Under the pieces are notes generated by a model that was given only the letters and a program-made list of their open reading frames with translations, had not been told where the DNA came from and did no database searches. 64,000 bases of DNA from Chiloscyllium plagiosum (taxonomy: Eukaryota). Positions 1,181 to 53,048 of this stretch are shown here, piece by piece. The DNA lies in NCBI RefSeq assembly GCF_004010195.1, contig NC_057754.1, forward strand, positions 4,713,280-4,777,279, given 5' to 3'. A program made the translations under genes and the position numbers. Positions within the stretch are counted from its first letter, which is position 1. Each line of letters opens with the position of its first letter.

Positions 1181-2433
1181 TGTTGATGATTGAGACGTTT
1201 GATAGGATAAATGCTAAGTTGCCAGTAGCCTGGGGTTGAAAGCTTGGTTCAATTAAATGAAAGTTACATCTTATCCCCACCTCCAAAGTAATTTGTTTTC
1301 CAAAATAAAAACCTTAATTCACTCCTGGCAGGGGACAATTGCGCCCCCCCCCCCCCCATTATCTTATTCAAACGTTTAAGTGTTATTTTAAATCTCTTGC
1401 CCTCCCCCACAGAATGCAATGAAATTATATGTTAAACCTTTTTTCCCCTCCATTCACAGTCATGATGTCCAAAAATCAAGTTATCCCTTCTCTCCAGCGT
1501 GAAAGATCTAAGTGTTGCCCTTAACTTTGGTTTGGATAAAAGCTCTGAGCGGGCAGATTTCTGTCCTGGGCAACATCTTGTGGGATTGCCTGGCTGACCT
1601 GTCTGCCAACCTGGTTTCACACCCGGGTCTTATGAAAATGCTTTGGGTGCAGAGCTTGGCAAGAGCAAATGCTGATGGGGGCTTGTTGGCATTTTCTTCA
1701 CCAGACATAGGTGGGCCGGGTTGGTCTGGCAACAGAAACAAATGATTGGTCCTACCCTCTTTTTGAACCTTTGCAGCAAACTCCTGCACAGATCCCTTTG
1801 TGGACCTGTTTGTCAAATGCTTGGTACACCTTGGGGCAGTGCACCAAATGTTCAACAACTTGATGAGGCATCAAATTATACTGAGGTTTTTACAGAATTT
1901 CATTTTCAAAGCATTGACTTCATATGTAAGTTTGCGTAATGGTTCAAATTTGAACTATCCATAAGTCACAATACAATTTATTTCCATATAAAATACAGAT
2001 TCTGTGGCCTCTCACAGCACTTAGAATTACGTTTCATATTTATAATATGCATATTTATAAATTTATTCATTTGTGGGATGTGGACATCGCTGGCTGGCCA
2101 GCATTTATTATCTGCCCCTAGTTGCCCTTAAGAAGGTGGTTCTGAGCTGCCTTCTTGAACTGCTGATAAGGTTCCCCATGGTAGGCTCATTCAGAAAGTA
2201 AGGAAGCATGGGTTACAGGGTTATTTGGCTGTCTGGATACAGAATTGGCTGGCCCATAGAAGGCAGAGAGTAGTAGTAAATGGAAAATATTCAGCCTGCA
2301 GCTCGGTGACCAGTGGTGTTCCACACGGATCTGTGCCTCAGCACCTCTGCTGTTCTTGATTTTTATAAATGACTTGGATGAAGAAATGGAAGGGTAGGTT
2401 AGTATGTTTGCTGATGACATGAAGACTGATGGA

Positions 2434-2647
2434 TAAAAGCAAATTACTGCGGATACTGGATCTGAAACCAAAAGAGAAAATGCTGGAAAATCTCAGCAGG
2501 TCTGTAGGCAGAATCTGTAAGGAGAGAAAAGAGCTGACGTTTCGAGTCTAACTGACCCTTTGTCAAAGCAGCTTTTTTGTCAGCTCTTTTCTCTCCTTAC
2601 AGATGCTGCTAGACCTGCTGAGATTTTCCAGCATTTTCTCTTTTGGT
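2434..2647. mobile_element. Fold-back Penelope pLTR-derived element inserted in CR1
   Basis: Inverted arms at about 2466-2538 and 2579-2648. 14-bp TSD TGAAGACTGATGGA (2420-2433) / TGAAGATTGATGGA (2648-2661). Confidence 0.85.
2533..2569 (-). ncRNA. Minimal type-I hammerhead ribozyme motif, U3-A8 core variant
   Basis: Minus strand reads GCU UUGACAA A GGGUC AGUUA GACUC GAAAC GUC AGC. Helix I GCU/AGC, 5-bp helix II with one G-U pair, GUC triplet. Predicted cut between 2536 and 2535. Confidence 0.7.
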
Positions 2648-4705
2648 TGAAGATTGATGGAATTGTGGATAATATGGAGGGCTGTGGTAGGTTGCAATGA
2701 GACATTGACAGTATGCAGAACTGGGCTGATAAGTGGCAGATGACGTTCAACCTGGAAAAGTATGAAATAATTCATTTTGGAAGATTGCATTTGAATGGAG
2801 AATGCAGGGTTTAAGGCAGGATTCTTGGCAGTGTGGAGGAACAGAGGGATCTTGGAATCCATGTCCATATATCCCTCAAAGTTGCCACCCAAGCAGATAG
2901 TGTTTTCAGAAGGGATATGATGTGTTGGCTTTCATTAGCAGGGGAATTGAGTTTAAGAGCCGTGAGTTTATCCTACAAGTTTATCGAGCCCTGGTTAAAT
3001 CACACTTGAAATATTGTGTTCAGTCTGGTCGCCTCATTATAGGAAGGATGTTGAAGCTTTAGAGAGGGTGCAGAGGAGATTTAGCAGGATGCTGTCTGGA
3101 CTAGAGGGCATGTCTTATGAAGAAAGGCTGAGGGAGCTGAGGCTTTTCTCATTGGAGCAAAGAACGGTGAGAGGCGACTGGAAAGAGGTGTACAAGATGA
3201 TGAGAGATATAGATGGAGTGAATAGTCAGAGACTTTTTCTCAGGGCAGTAATGGCTATCACAAGGGGGCATAATTTTAAGGTGATTGGAGGAAGGTTGAG
3301 GGGAGATATCGGAGGTCTGTTCTTTACACAGAGAGTTGTGAGTTTGTGGAATGTATTGCCAGTGATGGTGGTAGAGTCAGATACATTAGGGACATTTAAG
3401 CAACTCTTGGATAGGCAATGGATGATAGTAAAATGAAGGCTATGTAGGTTGGTTTGATCTTAGAGTAGGATAAAAGGTCGGTACAAAATGAAATGCTGAA
3501 GGGCATGTACTGTGTTGTACTGTTTTATGTTCTATAAATGGGGAAAGAATTGAGAATGTACCACATATATGCATTGTTTGGAAATACGAAGTGAGTCCAA
3601 AAAAAAAATAGTTAAAAGATATATGAGCCAGTCTCTTTGGGTGGTTTGTGTTTTGGTTTTCATGCCCAGTCCCTTTAGAATCTGTGAAGCAGCATCATAT
3701 TTATAATCCTTTCCTGTTCTGCATCTGTTTCCTTATTCATTTCAGAGCTCCCCAGTCAACCTTTTCTGATTGAATTACATCCTTGCTGTAGTGAGGGCTG
3801 TAAAACTGCACACAGAATGACCAGTACAGCCTGATCAATGCTGAAAACAGTGGCAGGTAAATGTTCAACTCATACCTTCTTATTTATAACCTGACGTACT
3901 GTATGCTTTCTTTACAGCTACCAGACAGTGAGTATCCATATACACATGCACTTTCCAGCTGGAGTCACTGCGTAATTAGCAGGTGCCCATTGATGTTTCT
4001 TTCCATCCCCAAGTAAGGAACTGGAATGACAAAAGTAGTCCCATTAAGTGCTACCCTGACTAAAATAAACTTTCGCAGAGAATCCAGTCTGGAACCTTCA
4101 GGTCTGGATGGTTTAGTGCTAAAACAGTTGGTGTCCTGATCCATTAGCCTGACCGGAAAGCTCCCTACTTTAGTAGTTCCATGCAATGTTTGTGATGTTT
4201 CAATCCAAAAAAACTGGGTTAAATAGACCCCTTCTGTACTGTAATCTTCTGTTGTTCTGTGATGTATTTGCCAGTGAGATACTCACCCTGTCCACCACTG
4301 GCGCACAGTAACATTGCATTGTTACATATGAAGCATTCTTCATGTAATTGCTAGTGTCAGTTTTTTGATTTATTGAGTAAGTGCACCCACAGTTGGATAC
4401 TGATGATCGAGATCAGAAGAACCTATGTTTGTTGAATGGCTGACTTTCATCTGTATTTTCAGACAGCAAGTTGAGTAGCTGCACAGTGAAAATGCTGATA
4501 TGCATTTACTGGTCCTTCTCGGCCACATTTTGTATTTTGCCAGTCATCTTGAAGTAGGCACACAAAATTCCTGTCAGAGCCCCATCATCTATGGAAATGC
4601 TGGTTCTCTGATGCCAATAGGACATTGCTGCAAATTTGAAGCACCAATGGACAGAGTCAACCCTTCACACACCATACACATTTAAACTTGATGCATAGCA
4701 ATCTT

Positions 4706-4826
4706 AGGAGAAAAGTGAGGACTGCAGATGCTGGAGATCAGAGTCGAGAGTGTGGTGTTGGAAAAGCACAGCAGGTCAGGCAGCATCTGAGAAGCAGGAG
4801 AATCGACTTTTCCAGCACCATACTCT
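4706..4826. mobile_element. Short Penelope pLTR-derived element with small inverted end
   Basis: AGGAGAAAAGTGAGGACTGCAGATGCTGGAGATCAGAG...GCAGGAGAATCGAC, followed by the inverted CTTTTCCAGCACCATACTC. Same family as 34298-34400. Confidence 0.75.
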
Positions 4827-5359
4827 TGGCAGAGGAGTCTAACCCAGAAGTCTTCAAATGCACAGTTGCAGACTGCTCCAAAATGCTTTACTTATTTTAA
4901 AAAAATGTTGTTTTTAAACAATGTTCTTCCTGCCCCCCTTTCAAAAATCAATTGTCCCCTCCCCCCGTCCAACTTTCCACTACCCTCTGCTGACAGCATC
5001 TCCCCTTTTCTCTTAACCTACCTGTTCTGCTTGAGTCCATGGAGAATCAGTGATATGTAGACAGTGTATGGGGAACTCACTGATGAATTGAGGTTCAACC
5101 ATGAAAATAGTTTGGGTCTTTGGTGCCTTGTGTTGGTTGAGCTTGCTTTGTGATCTGATAGAAGTGGACATTTCAAAACATCAAAATCAACTTTTGATTA
5201 TAGAGCCTTTAAAGTAATAATAACTGTGATACCTAAAGGAATTCAGGGATGTTATAGGACAAAGTTTGACATGCAGTATTATTTAGTTAGATGACTAAAC
5301 GCTTGGTCGAATACCAAATTTTAATATATGCTGGCAAAAGGAGAGAAACAGATATATGT

Positions 5360-5540
5360 TTAGGGATTTCCAGGGTTTAGGATCTAGGCTGCTGAAGGCA
5401 CAACTATGAGAAATCAGGGAAGCACAAGACCAGAAATAAAGGAACACCGAAATCCTGGAGAGTTGTAGGACTGGGAAAGGCTACAAAGATAAGATGGTGT
5501 GAAGCCATGGAGAGATTTGATTACAAGGATAAGAATCTGA
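5360..5540 (-). mobile_element. Old L2-type LINE 3' fragment
   Basis: Homologous to 11200-11490 and 54270-54630 (GAATTCCA..GCTGAAGGC..GGAGAGATTTGA..ACAAGGATAAGAAT). Resembles the reverse complement of the L2 ORF2 end. Confidence 0.5.
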
Positions 5541-5871
5541 TTTGTGTCAGCTAATCTCAGGGCCCTGGAATATAGAAAAGATAGTGATTCAAGGCTCTTA
5601 TTTCTAACTACTATGCTGTGACTGTGGAATCATATGTGTGTGGATATCTGACAAGGCATGACTGAGTTTGTAATTCTCTCCACAGTCGAATACCCTATGG
5701 TGACTTTATTAGACTGGCTCATCAATAAATAAGTAGTCATTTGGGTGGTGTACCTATGACTAAGATAATAAGAAATAGGAACAGGAGTAGGCCATTTGGC
5801 CCCTTGAGTCTGCTCTGCCATTCAAAAGCATTAAGGCTGATCCAACATTCCTCAAGGATAAATTACGTGGA

Positions 5872-6070
5872 AATAAAAGCAAAGTACTGCAGATGCTGTA
5901 AATCTGAAAAAAAAACATAGTGCTGGTGAAACACAGCAGGTTTGGAAGTATCTAGAGAGAGAGAGAAGCAGAGTTAACGTTTTGAGTCAGCTGTGACTTA
6001 ACTGAACTGGGAACTTTGTTCCTCTTCCACAGAGGTTACCAGGCCTGCTGAGGTTGTCTAGCACTTTCTG
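5872..6070. mobile_element. Degenerate fold-back Penelope pLTR-derived element
   Basis: TACTGCAGATGCTGTAAATCTGAAA...GAGTTAACGTTTTGAGTC followed by the inverted arm AACTTTG...CCTGCTGAG..TCTAGCAC. Confidence 0.6.
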
Positions 6071-6414
6071 TAAATGACTGGTTTAAAACTAATGCTTTTT
6101 TTTGGAAACTATAAGCAATGTTCGCACCAAAGGGGCTGTGTGCCACTATTGATTGATTTTGCACTATTAATTATATTAATTTCCCATACTGTTCTACTTG
6201 GGTCAACTTCGAGTCAGAAAGATCTGCAGTAAGGAAAAAGGCCCTTTGGCCCGTCCCTTTCATGCTGGCCAAAAACAATCACCTAATTATTCTAATCCCA
6301 TATACTTAGCCCATAGCCACTTCTTATGCCTTGGCGTCACAATTGCACATCTAAGTACTTAAATGTTTTGAGGGTCTCTGCTTCTGTCAGCCTTGCAGGC
6401 ATCAGACTAATATA

Positions 6415-6551
6415 TGTCAAAACCGAAAAATCTGTGGATGCTGTAAATCAGAGACAAAAATAGAAATTGCTGGAAAAGCTTGGCGAGTTTGGCAGTATAT
6501 GAGGGGAGTAATCAGAGTTAACGTTTCGTGTCGATTGACTCTTCCTCAGAC
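6415..6551 (-). mobile_element. Penelope pLTR-derived element with hammerhead motif (about 6515-6551)
   Basis: Minus strand reads CUGAGGA A GAGUC AAUC GACAC GAAAC GUU AACUC. Core intact, one mismatch in helix II, helix I 5' strand truncated. Confidence 0.7.
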
Positions 6552-6779
6552 CTAACCAGACATGACCTGCTTAAATTGCAGTCCCCTTAATAAAAACAAC
6601 TTTTAAAAATGTAAATAAAAATGGATCTTGAACAGGCATAAGCATCACCAGTCTTTCACAATAAATCACCAATGTGACCTGTTGGGGCAAAGATATGCAA
6701 TTTGAAAAAGATTAGATGTAAGGTGTATGGGTGCAGGTGTGTTTAAAGTAGTGTTTTGTTTTTGCCCTACTTTGAGTCA

Positions 6780-7700
6780 GCAAAGCACGATGCGGTGTTA
6801 GTAGAGGAACCGCTAACCAGCCATGTGCTGCTGTGCCTTGTCCCAGATTACTGCATTGTGTGTCTGTGTCTACCCCATTCTGTGTGTATTCCTCCGCCGT
6901 GAATGCAAAAGCATCCAATGCGATCAGATATCCAGCCATCTGCCGGGGAGAGAGAACCGCTTGCTTGAAACTAGTGAACCGTTAGCCAGAATTGCACAAG
7001 CCCTTATCGTTTTGACCAGAATATCTCATGCCGGATTATTTCATTGGCAGGGTTCAGGAGTCTGGATGCCGTAACTCGCAGCATCCGCTGCAACCTCTCT
7101 GATCAAGGGAGAAGAGAGAACCGAGAGAGATGTGTGGATTTAAAATCTAATCGCCTTCAGCTTTGTGTACAGGGAAGGCTGATTTCGCCAGATAAAGGTA
7201 TGTGTGCAACCCCCGAGGACGTTGAGGGGGAAGGGATGGGTGCAAAATAAAAGGGGTGTACTTAAATTATTGCTAGATGCGGTCTCCATTCATCAAAATG
7301 TTGTTGCCGACTCCCCGACCCTGTGATGGGTTGGATGCCTAATGCTACAATCGGTTGCCGGAGATTTCGAGCGTTCGGGAAAGAGATATTTCGACCATGC
7401 ACTTAAGGTTCCTTCGTGTTCGGATTACCTTGCGTCTAAAAATTAGACCAAAGATATTGTTGCATTTTTGATCAGTAAAGATCAAATCTGGACGCTCGTC
7501 GGCATCCTGTCTTTTGAATAACGAAATGCCTAAATAATGCTGGTTTGTTGTCGCGGAAACGTTGCGATTTCTAACGATTTTCTTTTGGTTTCATTGCATA
7601 ATGTTTTGGGGGGAGCAAGAGACATGTTGCAGACACGGGTTTTCCCCGTCGCTATGCGTTTGGAAAATATTGCAATAAAGAATGACTCCTCAGTCGAGTC
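6780..7700 (+). promoter_or_regulatory. CpG-enriched candidate promoter / non-coding first exon ending at a splice donor (exon end 7197)
   Basis: About 900 bp of non-repeat sequence with clear CpG excess. Strong donor AAG|GTATGT at 7197/7198. RFX X-box-like GTTGTCGCGGAAAC at 7547-7560. No convincing ORF. Confidence 0.5.
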
Positions 7701-9074
7701 ACTCACCATACAGTTGGAACTGATGTGCTTTTTTAAAAGACAGGTCAGCTCCTGAGCATGTTCAAGAGATAAGGTGCTGTGCAATTGCGTATGTGATTTA
7801 TCATTTTTTCAGTGTCAGATTAATTCCTTTAAAGTGCAATCAAATGTAGTCTCCACAAACAATAGGGGCTAGTCACGTCTCTGATCCATTTCTAGTTGAT
7901 CTCCAATAGGATCCATTCCCTGGAAAGCTGACTGGATCTTGTTTCCTCCTGTGATTTTGTTGTTGTTGGTTGCTGAATATCAAGTTCTAGCCAAGATTGA
8001 GCGAATGCTACTTCCCAATTACCATGAAATAATTTTTATTCTCTGTGGCAGAGCAGCTACAGTGAGAAGCAGAGAATTACAGTATTTTGATTCTCTGGTT
8101 ATAGTCGAAGGATTCCATCATTTTTGTATCCACCATCTTGCCATGCACAGATTCTGGTCCAGTGGGTGAAATCGTAGGTGGTGCCACTCTTCAGTGCAGC
8201 CTCTTCTTTCAGCGTACCCTTTTCCTTAGAAAAGTGCCCTTTGGCTAAAAGTGCTTAGAAAACTAACTTGGGTGATTCTTTCTACAAACATATCTAATCA
8301 TTCCATCATGAAAAGTTAACAAATCTGTGCACTTCGCTAAGCATAAGATTTTATTCAAGTTTGTCATTATATTTAATTAATTACCCAATTTAGAACATTA
8401 AATTTCTGCTCCTTCCACCGAAAATCTTATGCTTGCTATTTTTATGAGTTTTTATTAACTTTTTCTTCCTCAGTTGTCAGATGCCAGAGGTTGCAATTCC
8501 CTCAGAATAGGTGGGGAATCTACAATTCTCAGAAAAATTGAAAGAGTTCTCAAAGCACTTGCACAGTGAATGGAATATTTGCAGGTTGATTACTTTTGAC
8601 TATTGAGGGAAGCCCTCATAAGAACTATTTTGCATCATTTTTATTTACAGTAACAGGAGTTCACTGCATAACAGGTCAAATTACAACCAGTATGGAATGC
8701 TAAGGTCACAAACAAAAATGCCCAGAATGAATTCTGTGAACCCTGGCAATCTTGTCCATGAAACTCAGGGAACTTAGACCCTACTTTCTTATTTATTTCT
8801 TCTCGGATTGATCCTTGGAGATTATGAAGCACTGTTTTTGGGACTACTGCTTCATTCGGTGGGAAAATCTTAAGTCAGACCACTAGGATCTTATTATCAG
8901 CAACTTGTGATACTTGAAAATACTTGTGTCACAAACTAACTTAAATTTGGCTACTTTTAAAGAAATCTCACAGATAATCAAGTATTGGAACAATTACTTA
9001 ACTTCATTGCATGTAGCATAAGAAAATAAGACCCCTTGATTAAGTACATTAAGCCTCACAACTCACCTGAGCTA

Positions 9075-9269
9075 CTAAAAGCAAAAAAATGCTGGAGATC
9101 ACAACAGGTCAGGCAGCATGAATAGAGAGAAAGCAAGCTAACATTTTGAGTCTAGATGACTCTTCATCAGAGCAAAGTGAAGTATGGAGGGGGCAGCAAT
9201 TATGCAACTGTTGGGTGGCCTTGGATTGCTGTTTTTGATTCAGATTCAGCATCTGCAGTAATTTGCTCT
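9075..9269. mobile_element. Penelope pLTR-derived element with partial inversion
   Basis: TSD TCACCTGAGCTA (9063-9074) / TCACCTCAGCTA (9270-9281). Inverted terminal piece GATTCAGCATCTGCAGTAATTTGC. Confidence 0.75.
9137..9173 (-). ncRNA. Decayed minimal hammerhead motif (C3-G8 core)
   Basis: Minus strand reads GCU CUGAUGA A GAGUC AUCUA GACUC AAAAU GUU AGC. Perfect 5-bp helix II and helix I GCU/AGC. GAAAC has decayed to AAAAU by two CpG-type transitions. Confidence 0.6.
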
Positions 9270-12764: not shown

Positions 12765-13355
12765 ATGCCAAAGGGAAAAGGAACAAGCAAACAGCAGCAG
12801 GGAGGACACTCCCCTGCAACACCTACGACACCAGAGACTGCAGCAGCAGCAGCCTCTCCTGACCCCCACCCCCCCTCCCCCGGACCTGACAGACTCACAG
12901 GAATTGGCTACGGCGCTGGAGAGACTTACCTTGAAAGTTGGGGCTGCGATTGAGGAGATCCGTGTGGAGATTCGTGCCCAGGTCCAACCTATTGCATCCA
13001 TACTGCAGAAGCATGAGCAGGAGATCCAGGGCCTCGGGGAGAGGCTAGAGGAGGTGGAGGGTCGAACTAAGGCCTCGGAAGCTGCAATGGAGTCCTCATC
13101 CAATCGAATCCAGGTGCTGGAGCAAGAGGTGCGGGCCTTGCAAGATCATTTCGACGACCTTGAAAATCGATGTTGGAGGATGTCTCCGAATTGTTGGGCT
13201 CCCTGAATGTGAGGAAAGTGAGCAGCCAGTCAGCTTCTTTGAAAACTGGCTGCCGAAGGTTTGGGGCCTTCACATTGAGTCTGGCAAGCTACAGATTGAA
13301 AGAGTTTATCAGGTTACAATGCACAGGTCAGGGCTGGTGCAGCCCCCCCCCCCAC

Positions 13356-13389
<34 letters not shown>

Positions 13390-24766: not shown

Positions 24767-24861
24767 CTGAGGAAAGGACACTTGACCTGAAATGTTAACT
24801 TGGATTTCTTTCTACAGATGCTGCCAAACTTGCTAACCTTTTCCAGCAATTTCTGATTTTG
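24767..24861 (+). mobile_element. Penelope pLTR-derived element beginning exactly at the hammerhead core
   Basis: TSD TTCATGATTCTT (24755-24766) / TTCATCATTCTT (24862-24873). Insert starts CTGAGGA AAGG ACACTTGA CCT GAAAT GTT AAC. Confidence 0.75.
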
Positions 24862-34359: not shown

Positions 34360-34395
34360 AATCAACGTTTCGGGCATGAGCCCTTCTTCAGGAAT
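34360..34395 (-). ncRNA. Minimal type-I hammerhead ribozyme motif in the PLE terminal repeat
   Basis: Minus strand reads AUUC CUGAAGA A GGGC UCAU GCCC GAAAC GUU GAUU. Intact core, perfect 4-bp helix II, weak helix I. Same strand as the PLE ORF. Predicted cut between 34364 and 34363. Confidence 0.7.
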
Positions 34396-37435: not shown

Positions 37436-38599
37436 TAGTTGAAGCTCTCAAAGAAAGGATGACTGTTTGAGCACAGTTTTTGAGAGTTGCTACCAAAAGT
37501 GACATTAGGGAAAAAAGAGATGTAGTTAAAAGGAAAAAAAGAGATGTAGTTAAAAGGAAAAAGAAATTTTGGATTTTCCCTTCGAGGTCTGCCCAGTGCT
37601 TCCTTAACTAATTGTGTAGGGAATTGATTATTTGTTGCATTAGTTAATCAATCTGCATTGCTACTAGGCCAACTCCCCATAGTGTTTTAATGTACATACA
37701 AGTGTGACATCTACAGTTACACAACCATCTGCCTGTCTGCAAAATTTGATTTTTTTTTTCAGTTCTATTGACCTGTTCCTGGTCTGTTCATGAAATGAGC
37801 CTTTATTCCAATTCTCCAGGTGGATTTGAGTGACAGCCAGGCCTGATATTAATCTTTGGGACCATCTGGCTATGGTAGCAGTTGTTTAATTCTCCCTGCT
37901 TGCTCGTTCTGTTGGTTTTGTGCGTAGGTTTTAATATTGTTCTGATGCAGAGTGAAATTGTAGATATTGGAACACATTAAGGCTTTATTGTTGGCATGTA
38001 TTCAATATGTAATTTGAAAGACCGAGCAATAGTTAATCTGCTGCTGAGCATATAAAATATTGGAAAATTATAGTATGAAAGAGAATCTTGAATTGTTTTG
38101 GTAAATCCAACAACACTGAGGCTTACAGATATGATTAGGGAAATTCTTTATTGTGATCATCAAGAATATTGCTCTAATGAATGGCAGCTGAAGTGAGACA
38201 CCCATATGGAATTATGAATTTTTAAAAAAGGACAGTATTAACAAATTACCCAATAACAACAAATTGACACGCATTGCCCTTTGAAAAGTACAAGCATTCC
38301 AATTATCTGTGTATTCGGCTTTCTTCCTCTAATTACTTTGCAATCTTATATTTCTGATTGAAAATCAGATCTTTTAATTCAGTTTTCTGCCATAGAATGC
38401 TTACTCCAAATGCCAAAGTGGTTCAGGAGCCATGAATTTAACTGGCCACGAGAAGCTGTAGGAACCGTCTGTGTATGCTTTTCCAATGTCACTGCATTCC
38501 ATATGCAGTTACATTGGCAACAATACCTGTGTAGACAGTACCCATTGTGACTACTGCAGAAAAGAGGGTTGGTGAAGTGGCTCAGGAAGAGGGAGTTAG

Positions 38600-42030: not shown

Positions 42031-43055
42031 AATTTCTAGTTGCATTGAGGAAAAGCATTAGAATAACAAAGAGAAAATGGTATATTAGGGTACAGGGGGA
42101 AAGTAGGGTTTTAGGAATGTGAATGTTGCCTTCTGTTTTCTTGAAGTTTGTTGTATTAAAGGACAGCCTCCTGTGCTGTCTCATTTTGATCTACGATGTT
42201 ATGTTTCGTTATGTCATATTGTTCTTTTCCCTACAGAGAAGTGTACATAGGAGAAGATACACTAAATTTTCTCTGACATTGATTCAGTATTATTGTTGGT
42301 TTGACTTTGTGGGGGTCAAACAGGTTGATGTAATGTTCCAGGTTGGGTTACTGATTGAAGGATTAGGTTTTATTTGAAGGAGGCTTAATTAGAGCTGGGC
42401 AATTGTTAGAAAGATAGACTCTGTTGAACATAAGAGAAATCCTCAATGATCGACTCAATTCCTGAGCAGCATTTACTGAGAGGCACTGAGATAACCTCTG
42501 TCAGTAATCTGTTTATTGCATCAGTATATTTGTGGGCTTCTCTACTAAAGACTTTGAATTGACAAATATTAAACATGGTTTTTATGTATTCAGCAAATTT
42601 TATTTACAACTCAATGATAATATGAAACATAAATCAGTAAGTACTGAAATTGTGTGTTTGATCATGCATACAAACTTGCAAAACGAGTAGGCCATTTGGC
42701 CTATCATACTTGCTCCACTATTCAGAAAGATCATTACTGATCTGATTAAAACTTCAAATCCAAATTTCCATCTACTACAAATAACAGTTCAAAATCTTTG
42801 CTTAACAATCTGCCTTTGCTTAACAATCTGCCTTAAACAATCTCCTTCCACAAATCAAGGGAATTTTTGAAAATTAAAATCCATTAACTATCTTACTAGT
42901 CATTTCTTGTTTTAGACCCTAAGATGAAGTCTAAAGGGACCTGAACACTTATCAATCTGCAGCTCTAACAATTTTCTCAGTACCATTTTCTTATGATTGT
43001 AATGATTATTACATTTGTAAGAAGAAACACAGCAGTTCTAATGGTTCATTAAATG

Positions 43056-52955: not shown

Positions 52956-53048
52956 GTCGAGAGTGTAGTGCTGGAAAAGCACAGCAGATCAGGCAGCATC
53001 CCAGGAGCAGGAGAATCGACGTTTCGGGCATAAGCTCTTCATCAGGCA
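52956..53048 (-). mobile_element. Penelope pLTR-derived element
   Basis: Perfect 12-bp TSD GTTGAGACTTGT (52944-52955 / 53049-53060). Confidence 0.88.
53014..53046 (-). ncRNA. Minimal hammerhead motif with canonical core
   Basis: Minus strand reads C CUGAUGA A GAGC UUAU GCCC GAAAC GUC GAUU. One mismatch in helix II; helix I largely lost. Confidence 0.6.

Follow-up and report, generated by a model that had tools for sequence, protein, structure and literature searches.

Does the short hammerhead-like motif at positions 2533 to 2569 of the window (the whole 64,000-nt stretch of DNA that was analysed), which carries U3-A8 in its core where a related copy carries C3-G8, belong to a ribozyme kept by selection in a parent element, or did it arise by decay of a single copy? 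Our reading, to which we assign a probability of about 0.72, is that the motif lies in a short copy of the 5' end of a Penelope-like element, that the U3-A8 minimal hammerhead is family-wide with a 3-8 pair likely kept by selection, and that this ribozyme would work only as a dimer or together with an element protein.

The sequence quoted for this copy in an earlier note on this DNA was found as an exact match on the minus strand. Helix I (2569–2567 paired with 2535–2533) is followed by the core UUGACAA (2566–2560), an unpaired A after A9 (2559), helix II (2558–2554 paired with 2548–2544; five base pairs, one of them G-U, and a loop of 5 nt), GAAA (2543–2540) and a GUC triplet; cleavage is predicted between 2536 and 2535. 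Helix III is absent; a self-complementary ACGU (2540–2537), with C-G at 15.2–16.2, was invariant in 7/7 family representatives, and the self-complementary positions 15.1–16.1 could allow a dimer. UUGACAA, GAAA and GUC agree with the definition of the minimal type I hammerhead (N3-UGA-N-N8-A, GAAA, NUH and a Watson-Crick 3-8 pair). A scan of the window against Rfam yielded no match at the gathering score, the folding energy of the monomer was unremarkable (z = −1.52; 17 of 200 shuffles were as stable), and two-strand energy minimisation predicted that the strands swap helix II instead of forming a double hammerhead. Given the Rfam result and the unremarkable monomer energy, the case for the ribozyme rests on comparison and not on energy.

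The motif is part of an inserted sequence with the following features; numbers with a sign count from the inferred transcription start (+1).

2532 to 2569 (also given as 2533 to 2569), minus strand: minimal type I hammerhead motif (sequence, fold map, covariation)
2561 to 2566, minus strand: swapped core pair U3 (2566) and A8 (2561) (family consensus)
2434 to 2647, no single strand: whole insertion, 214 bp, two head-to-head arms of the 5' segment of a Penelope-like pseudo-LTR
2420 to 2433, plus strand: left target-site duplication, 14 nt, 93% identical to 2648–2661
2648 to 2661, plus strand: right target-site duplication, matching the left copy
2434 to 2569, minus strand: main arm, spanning +2 to roughly +136 of the inferred transcript
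2434 to 2466, minus strand: 33-nt "tail", in the main arm only, located between the family's two clusters of 3' ends
2570 to 2647, plus strand: inverted arm, from +1 (AGCT) to the first 3'-end cluster (sequence)

The main arm contains the ribozyme, a pyrimidine-rich spacer, a conserved hairpin region and the tail, and the inverted arm is without the ribozyme core (about +7 to +32 are missing). Joining the flanks of 2434–2647 restored a LINE-type reverse transcriptase (RT) reading frame; the target of the insertion was a degenerate LINE RT fragment (window 2200–2433 and 2662–2900), which we take to be CR1-like. Tails of Penelope-like elements are described in PMC8557442/bioRxiv and PMC11167929 (here and below, papers are cited for the parts of them that were available).

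In other copies, pieces of an RT gene lie directly upstream of the ribozyme segment, and one locus (L082) has the order pseudo-LTR, open reading frame (ORF), pseudo-LTR. An RVT_1 match (E = 3.5e-6; L081) and a weak GIY-YIG match (E = 0.016; L085) were both under the Pfam curated cut-off; RT and GIY-YIG occurred in separate, broken copies, which we counted as the single-ORF combination of the two domains. The start of GIY-YIG is preceded by a linker zinc finger (C-x4-C-x2-C), and a zinc finger in the RT-endonuclease linker is a feature of Neptune elements that is also found in Nematis (bioRxiv 2021.04.23.441226). The pseudo-LTRs, the inverted 5'-truncated arm, the 33-nt tail on one end and the 14-bp duplication are likewise structural features of Penelope-like elements. 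By domain content and architecture, the parent is a Penelope-like element, assigned to the Neptune type by its linker zinc finger. No tandem array of the kind expected for a non-LTR retrozyme (head-to-tail tandem hammerhead units, no ORF) was found at the locus, and the copies of the family are dispersed or inverted and linked to an RT ORF, unlike non-LTR retrozymes. In the U3-A8 family the long ORF begins about 170 nt downstream, and no frame through the ribozyme that could constrain its core by coding joins this ORF in the majority form seen.

About 20 nt past the cut site (about 2490–2515, minus strand) lies a motif starting GATGCTGCC, which is conserved in all families despite differing neighbouring sequence. 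It can pair with a downstream CAGCAT and is a candidate protein-binding or RT-start structure; in family A it also opens an upstream ORF of 22 codons.

The earlier note had asked whether TTGACAA is the consensus of its subfamily, and this proved to be the case. The 28 nt downstream of the core have 1,257 exact copies in the genome (reversed control: 0), and 872 of the 1,257 are preceded by TTGACAAA. Among the first 30 loci by position, 19 had TTGACAAA, and most of the others were 5' junctions cutting into the core; C3-A8 occurred in two of the 30, one of them at a deletion junction. G8 was found in only 17 family copies genome-wide, mostly with U3, and one was a clear C3-G8 copy with an intact helix I; none of these 17 pointed to a C3-G8 ancestor subfamily with the family's own helix II. 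The divergence from the reference copy was 2.3% at non-CpG and 12% at CpG sites, figures biased low by the choice of copies through near-exact patterns. On these data the U3-A8 family is a young burst from a U3-A8 master. That TTGACAA is private to the copy at 2533–2569, a product of drift after insertion in a motif that is not a real hammerhead, would agree with the absence of Rfam matches in the window and with the unremarkable folding energy. However, it is at odds with the 872 exact TTGACAAA copies, with the covariation across families described below and with an architecture that is the same as in published minimal hammerheads; the consensus and the scarcity of G8 copies rule it out, and we give it virtually no credence. 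Judged by comparison among copies, the minimal hammerhead motif is a real and family-wide feature of a Penelope-like element.

To relate the U3-A8 state to other families, the four 3-8 states were counted with one degenerate pattern across families in the 3.56-Gb vertebrate genome, whose repeats seem to resemble those of cartilaginous fish. Exact matches numbered 116,630 for C3-G8, 2,576 for U3-G8, 1,802 for C3-A8 and 1,759 for U3-A8, and the U3-A8 doubles exceeded the expectation from independent drift (39.8, about 40) 44-fold. As 99 of the first 100 U3-A8 matches (of 1,759) belonged to one family, this excess reflects one fixation followed by amplification, and by this count the double change is a single evolutionary event, not many. 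Single changes were scattered across C3-G8 families and formed no family of their own among the 100 matches listed, while 8 of the 100 listed C3-A8 matches belonged to the U3-A8 family. A purine-3/pyrimidine-8 pattern, limited to motifs that have an unpaired A and a helix II beginning with RRG, gave 41 scattered matches and no G3-C8 or A3-U8 family. Genome-wide, more than 120,000 exact pattern matches to minimal hammerheads of this group were counted.

Covariation was assessed in seven family representatives, hand-picked as nearest to hand-made family models and including four from close subfamilies; families E and F, which have no near-intact copy, lie outside this set. The core bases other than 3 and 8 were invariant, and 6 of 10 pairs had a compensatory change on both sides (three in helix I, two in helix II, and the 3-8 pair). 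Altogether 95.5% of the cells pair, a value reached by 0 of 500 shuffles in a test that is inflated by the relatedness of the representatives, and slid controls had at most one pair changed on both sides. Compensatory support was thus found for helices I and II, together with G10.1-C11.1 and the unpaired base after A9. The earlier note had explained the double change by selection for catalysis in the parent element, and selection for the catalytic fold is still the best reading. Its further statement that the swap is the strongest in-window evidence was too strong, because the swap is one event and the five further compensatory pairs in helices I and II, with the invariant core, are evidence at least as strong. 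It remains telling that the only core changes, two in number, fell on bases that pair with each other. From six of the seven representatives and a near-identical coral Neptune motif we infer that the change went from C3-G8 to U3-A8; its most likely route would have been a U3-G8 wobble or CpG deamination at C7-G8, and the C7 of the U3-A8 family fits the CpG route at 7-8.

The copy to which the motif had been compared is listed here in the same manner.

9136 to 9204, minus strand: comparison copy, family B, with a C3-G8 core and A at G12 (9147) (sequence, family assignment)

The core CUGAUGA, the same helix I and the 5-bp/5-nt helix II described for the copy at 9137–9173 are present, but the copy has further traits that the earlier note leaves out. 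It belongs to a different family, is decayed, and has U in place of C15.2 (9143) and A in place of G12 (9147), both at CpG sites. G12 is the general base of the hammerhead (PMC6155905), so the copy is predicted to be dead. Since it is decayed and from another family, setting the two copies side by side does not give a clean view of before and after. A TATA-like CATAAT at 9204 lies 30 nt above its helix I start.

A single event could also be luck: U3-A8 might be a double transition in one master that had no need to cut, through CpG deamination of C7-G8 to C7-A8 plus a common C-to-T change at position 3, with the motif kept for folding, protein binding or as a promoter. Both changes are transitions in one event, the U3-A8 family has the C7 that the CpG route needs, and the coral Neptune motif has C7-G8 (PMC4209133 Fig. 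S3), where a U3-G8 representative is also given for Saccoglossus; moreover, catalytic mutants had no effect on insertion in vitro (PMC11167929). We nevertheless consider such luck improbable, because the sole two core changes are the partners of one tertiary pair and are still complementary, the rest of the core does not differ between families, unlike loops and helices, the matches listed include no family whose 3-8 consensus is mismatched, and the same swap arose in Schistosoma (PMC4209133). We regard catalytic competence of the ribozyme in the parent element as likely.

Where the ribozyme sits in the transcript was approached through the ends of the copies. In a set of 105 family arms selected by ribozyme or RT queries, 67 5' ends fell at +1 to +4 and 14 at −1 to −7, 13 arms extended upstream and 11 ended inside the ribozyme. 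Among 91 unselected arms of all families, 43 reached the helix I start or beyond, 37 ended inside and 9 after the cut; the two scored at the cut were indel artefacts. The 3' ends fell into two clusters, +94 to +106 (44/127) and +130 to +141 (64/127). Only 1 of 100 tail-anchored copies left the consensus at the cut site, as judged by eye, and hence no footprint of cleavage was found in the copy ends of these 100 copies and of the 91 unselected arms. Long copies of five families have a TATA-like word 29–35 nt, about 31 nt, above +1: 17/22 in family A (TATAAA), 7/8 in B, 3/4 in C, 19/20 in D (TTTATCT/CTTATCT) and 3/3 in E, counts that amount to five observations, as the words were picked post hoc and copies within a family are non-independent. 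The sequence context of +1 is CTCATTCC or ATCAGTT, both of which we take to be initiator-like. Since helix I lies about 31 nt below a TATA-like word and copies start there and rarely at the cut, the ribozyme likely opens the transcript, and we consider it probable that transcription starts at the A of helix I with the ribozyme at the 5' end. An extra G above +1, as expected from copying of a cap, was not clearly enriched (4 of 31 arms and, by eye, 9 of about 25 tail-anchored copies). Single-cell poly(A) RNA yielded 90 reads in run X21 and none in X22; at this low depth neither the starts nor the ends of the 90 reads piled up at +1 or at the cut, and a fraction of 0.9 of them ran on into unlike sequence and look like read-through.

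Contigs assembled from two public runs contain joints that lead from several positions in the ORF exactly onto +1. At loci L038, L052, L057, L065, L070 and L080, internal ORF or pseudo-LTR pieces with varied end positions were joined directly to the +1 of a short copy, often framed by an inverted short copy, and these joints are a record of template jumps.

An active ribozyme would also be compatible with a boundary of another kind at helix I, set by splicing (as a 3' splice site), by an endonuclease or by antisense self-priming. Families A, B, C and E have a pyrimidine tract and YAG upstream of helix I, an intron ends at helix I in D. virilis (PMC4209133), antisense self-priming has been proposed for head-to-head repeats (PMC3846280), and an excess of cap-derived G is wanting. 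Yet the copies retain the AG and are without a common upstream exon, no GT..AG joint occurred in 15 of the 18 joints, those listed, and the D families are without the AG and have the initiator-like CTCATTCC instead. Together with the TATA-like spacing of about 31 nt in five families, these observations disfavour a splice site, and we regard a boundary other than a transcription start as rather unlikely.

In our working model, in which the ribozyme opens the transcript, RNA polymerase II would start at the A that opens helix I, and the ribozyme would form the first 39 nt. Reverse transcriptase would start about 100 or 135 nt downstream, run to the 5' end of the RNA and then fold back or jump, giving short and inverted copies such as that at 2434–2647. 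Two ribozymes, from two RNAs or from both pseudo-LTRs of one read-through RNA, would pair via the self-complementary ACGU to build helix III. The cut after GUC would remove the capped first 35 nt and free a unit-length RNA, which could circularise as proposed in PMC4209133; either circles or strand jumps could account for the copies that extend seamlessly upstream. Integration apparently does not use the linear RNA left by a cut, and uncut RNA would be copied. That insertions carry no footprint of linear cut RNA is in line with the uncut template and the protein-needing cleavage reported in PMC11167929.

The role of the hammerhead in Penelope-like elements is puzzling, as its cleavage is poor and insertion in vitro goes on in mutants. 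The probable start position and the absence of cut-site copies narrow the roles to cap removal, or to the release of a unit-length RNA with rapid ligation or destruction, and both can be tested. We only tentatively propose cap removal as the selected role. Equally speculative is a more specific version, in which the hammerhead, cutting solely as a dimer or with the protein of the element, is a dose-dependent self-decapping switch in a TATA/initiator-driven transcript, while uncut RNA yields strong-stop-like 100/135-nt cDNAs and through them more than 100,000 short copies. If this were true, bases of the initiator would at the same time form the 5' strand of helix I, in five families, and among vertebrates the U3-A8 family would be the first example of such a switch under selection for catalysis.

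Much of this has precedents. The 3-8 pair and U3-A8 as a natural variant, both presented as established in the earlier note, are indeed published (PMC3088659, PMC4209133). In natural hammerheads C3-G8 covaries to U3-A8, which is reportedly active in vitro (PMC3088659, citing Przybilski and Hammann 2007); those hammerheads are full ones, whereas the motif studied here is without helix III, and no report of activity of U3-A8 in a motif without helix III was found in the literature searched. U3-A8 minimal hammerheads occur in Penelope-like elements of Schistosoma mansoni (Cercyon; about 1,300 matches; PMC4209133). With the minimal hammerheads of that paper the motif shares the type I form without helix III, the self-complementary 15.2–16.2, the unpaired base between 9 and 10.1, G10.1-C11.1, a short helix I, mostly solo or inverted copies and the U3-A8 covariation. 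The Acropora Neptune row there (GCU, CUGACGA, GAAACGUC, AGC) is almost identical. In contrast, U3-A8 is absent from all 11 vertebrate rows in Fig. S3 of PMC4209133, which include no cartilaginous fish, whereas the host here is a vertebrate; and its more than 120,000 pattern matches are over ten times the 4,000–9,000 given for coelacanth and Xenopus. The available part of that paper does not place the ribozyme at the transcription start, as we infer here. By eye, several motifs of its Fig. S3 have initiator-like bases (e.g., UCAUUC) at the helix I start, and by this likeness the arrangement may be wider than the families studied here. Published minimal hammerheads cleave poorly in vitro and depend on dimers (PMC4209133).

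The element PAc (Poseidon, Anolis carolinensis; PMC11167929) has two internal RT start sites bracketing a 30–40 nt tail, like the two 3'-end clusters of the present family, and also shares the pseudo-LTR hammerhead, the uncut RNA template and, according to the accessible text, no RNA ends at the cut site. Its 3-8 pair was tested by C3G/G8C rescue, and its cleavage is protein-assisted. PAc differs in having C3-G8 and an ORF that starts inside the ribozyme, whereas the present family has U3-A8, is of Neptune type and has its ORF about 170 nt downstream. The Penelope of Adineta vaga (PMC3846280) has, much as here, a putative TATA and initiator in the pseudo-LTR, a tail (of 31 bp there) and head-to-head inverted repeats with a palindromic junction; the arms here are likewise head-to-head. 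That paper predates the discovery of the ribozyme in this element and, in the part available, does not link the initiator to a ribozyme. The Penelope of D. virilis has a TATA-less internal promoter and its ribozyme after an intron (PMC2377424, PMC4209133), and the start-site arrangement is therefore not universal. Searches of mostly open literature, without Repbase or Dfam, returned no report of a vertebrate or shark U3-A8 hammerhead and no paper placing a hammerhead ribozyme at +1. The U3-A8 variant itself is thus already known, and what is added here is the probable start-site placement of the ribozyme in five families. A vertebrate family that is young, abundant and fixed for U3-A8 adds another natural indication of a maintained catalytic fold, and it offers a ready set of wild type and single mutants.

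Further hammerheads were seen beside this family. More decayed C3-G8 copies, of families C and D, lie in the window at 382–410, 6520–6549, 24767–24796, 34364–34391, 53018–53045 and other positions, often as inverted pairs. A second hammerhead family, with CUGAGGA, an unpaired U, a longer helix II and GAAACGUC, was found at L015 (about 1360–1400) and L094 (about 3170–3250), and with its different flanks it probably represents a second Penelope-like clade. The window also contains short tandem features, namely a poly(C) run and two tandem duplications (13343–13386, 37507–37562 and 42796–42834).
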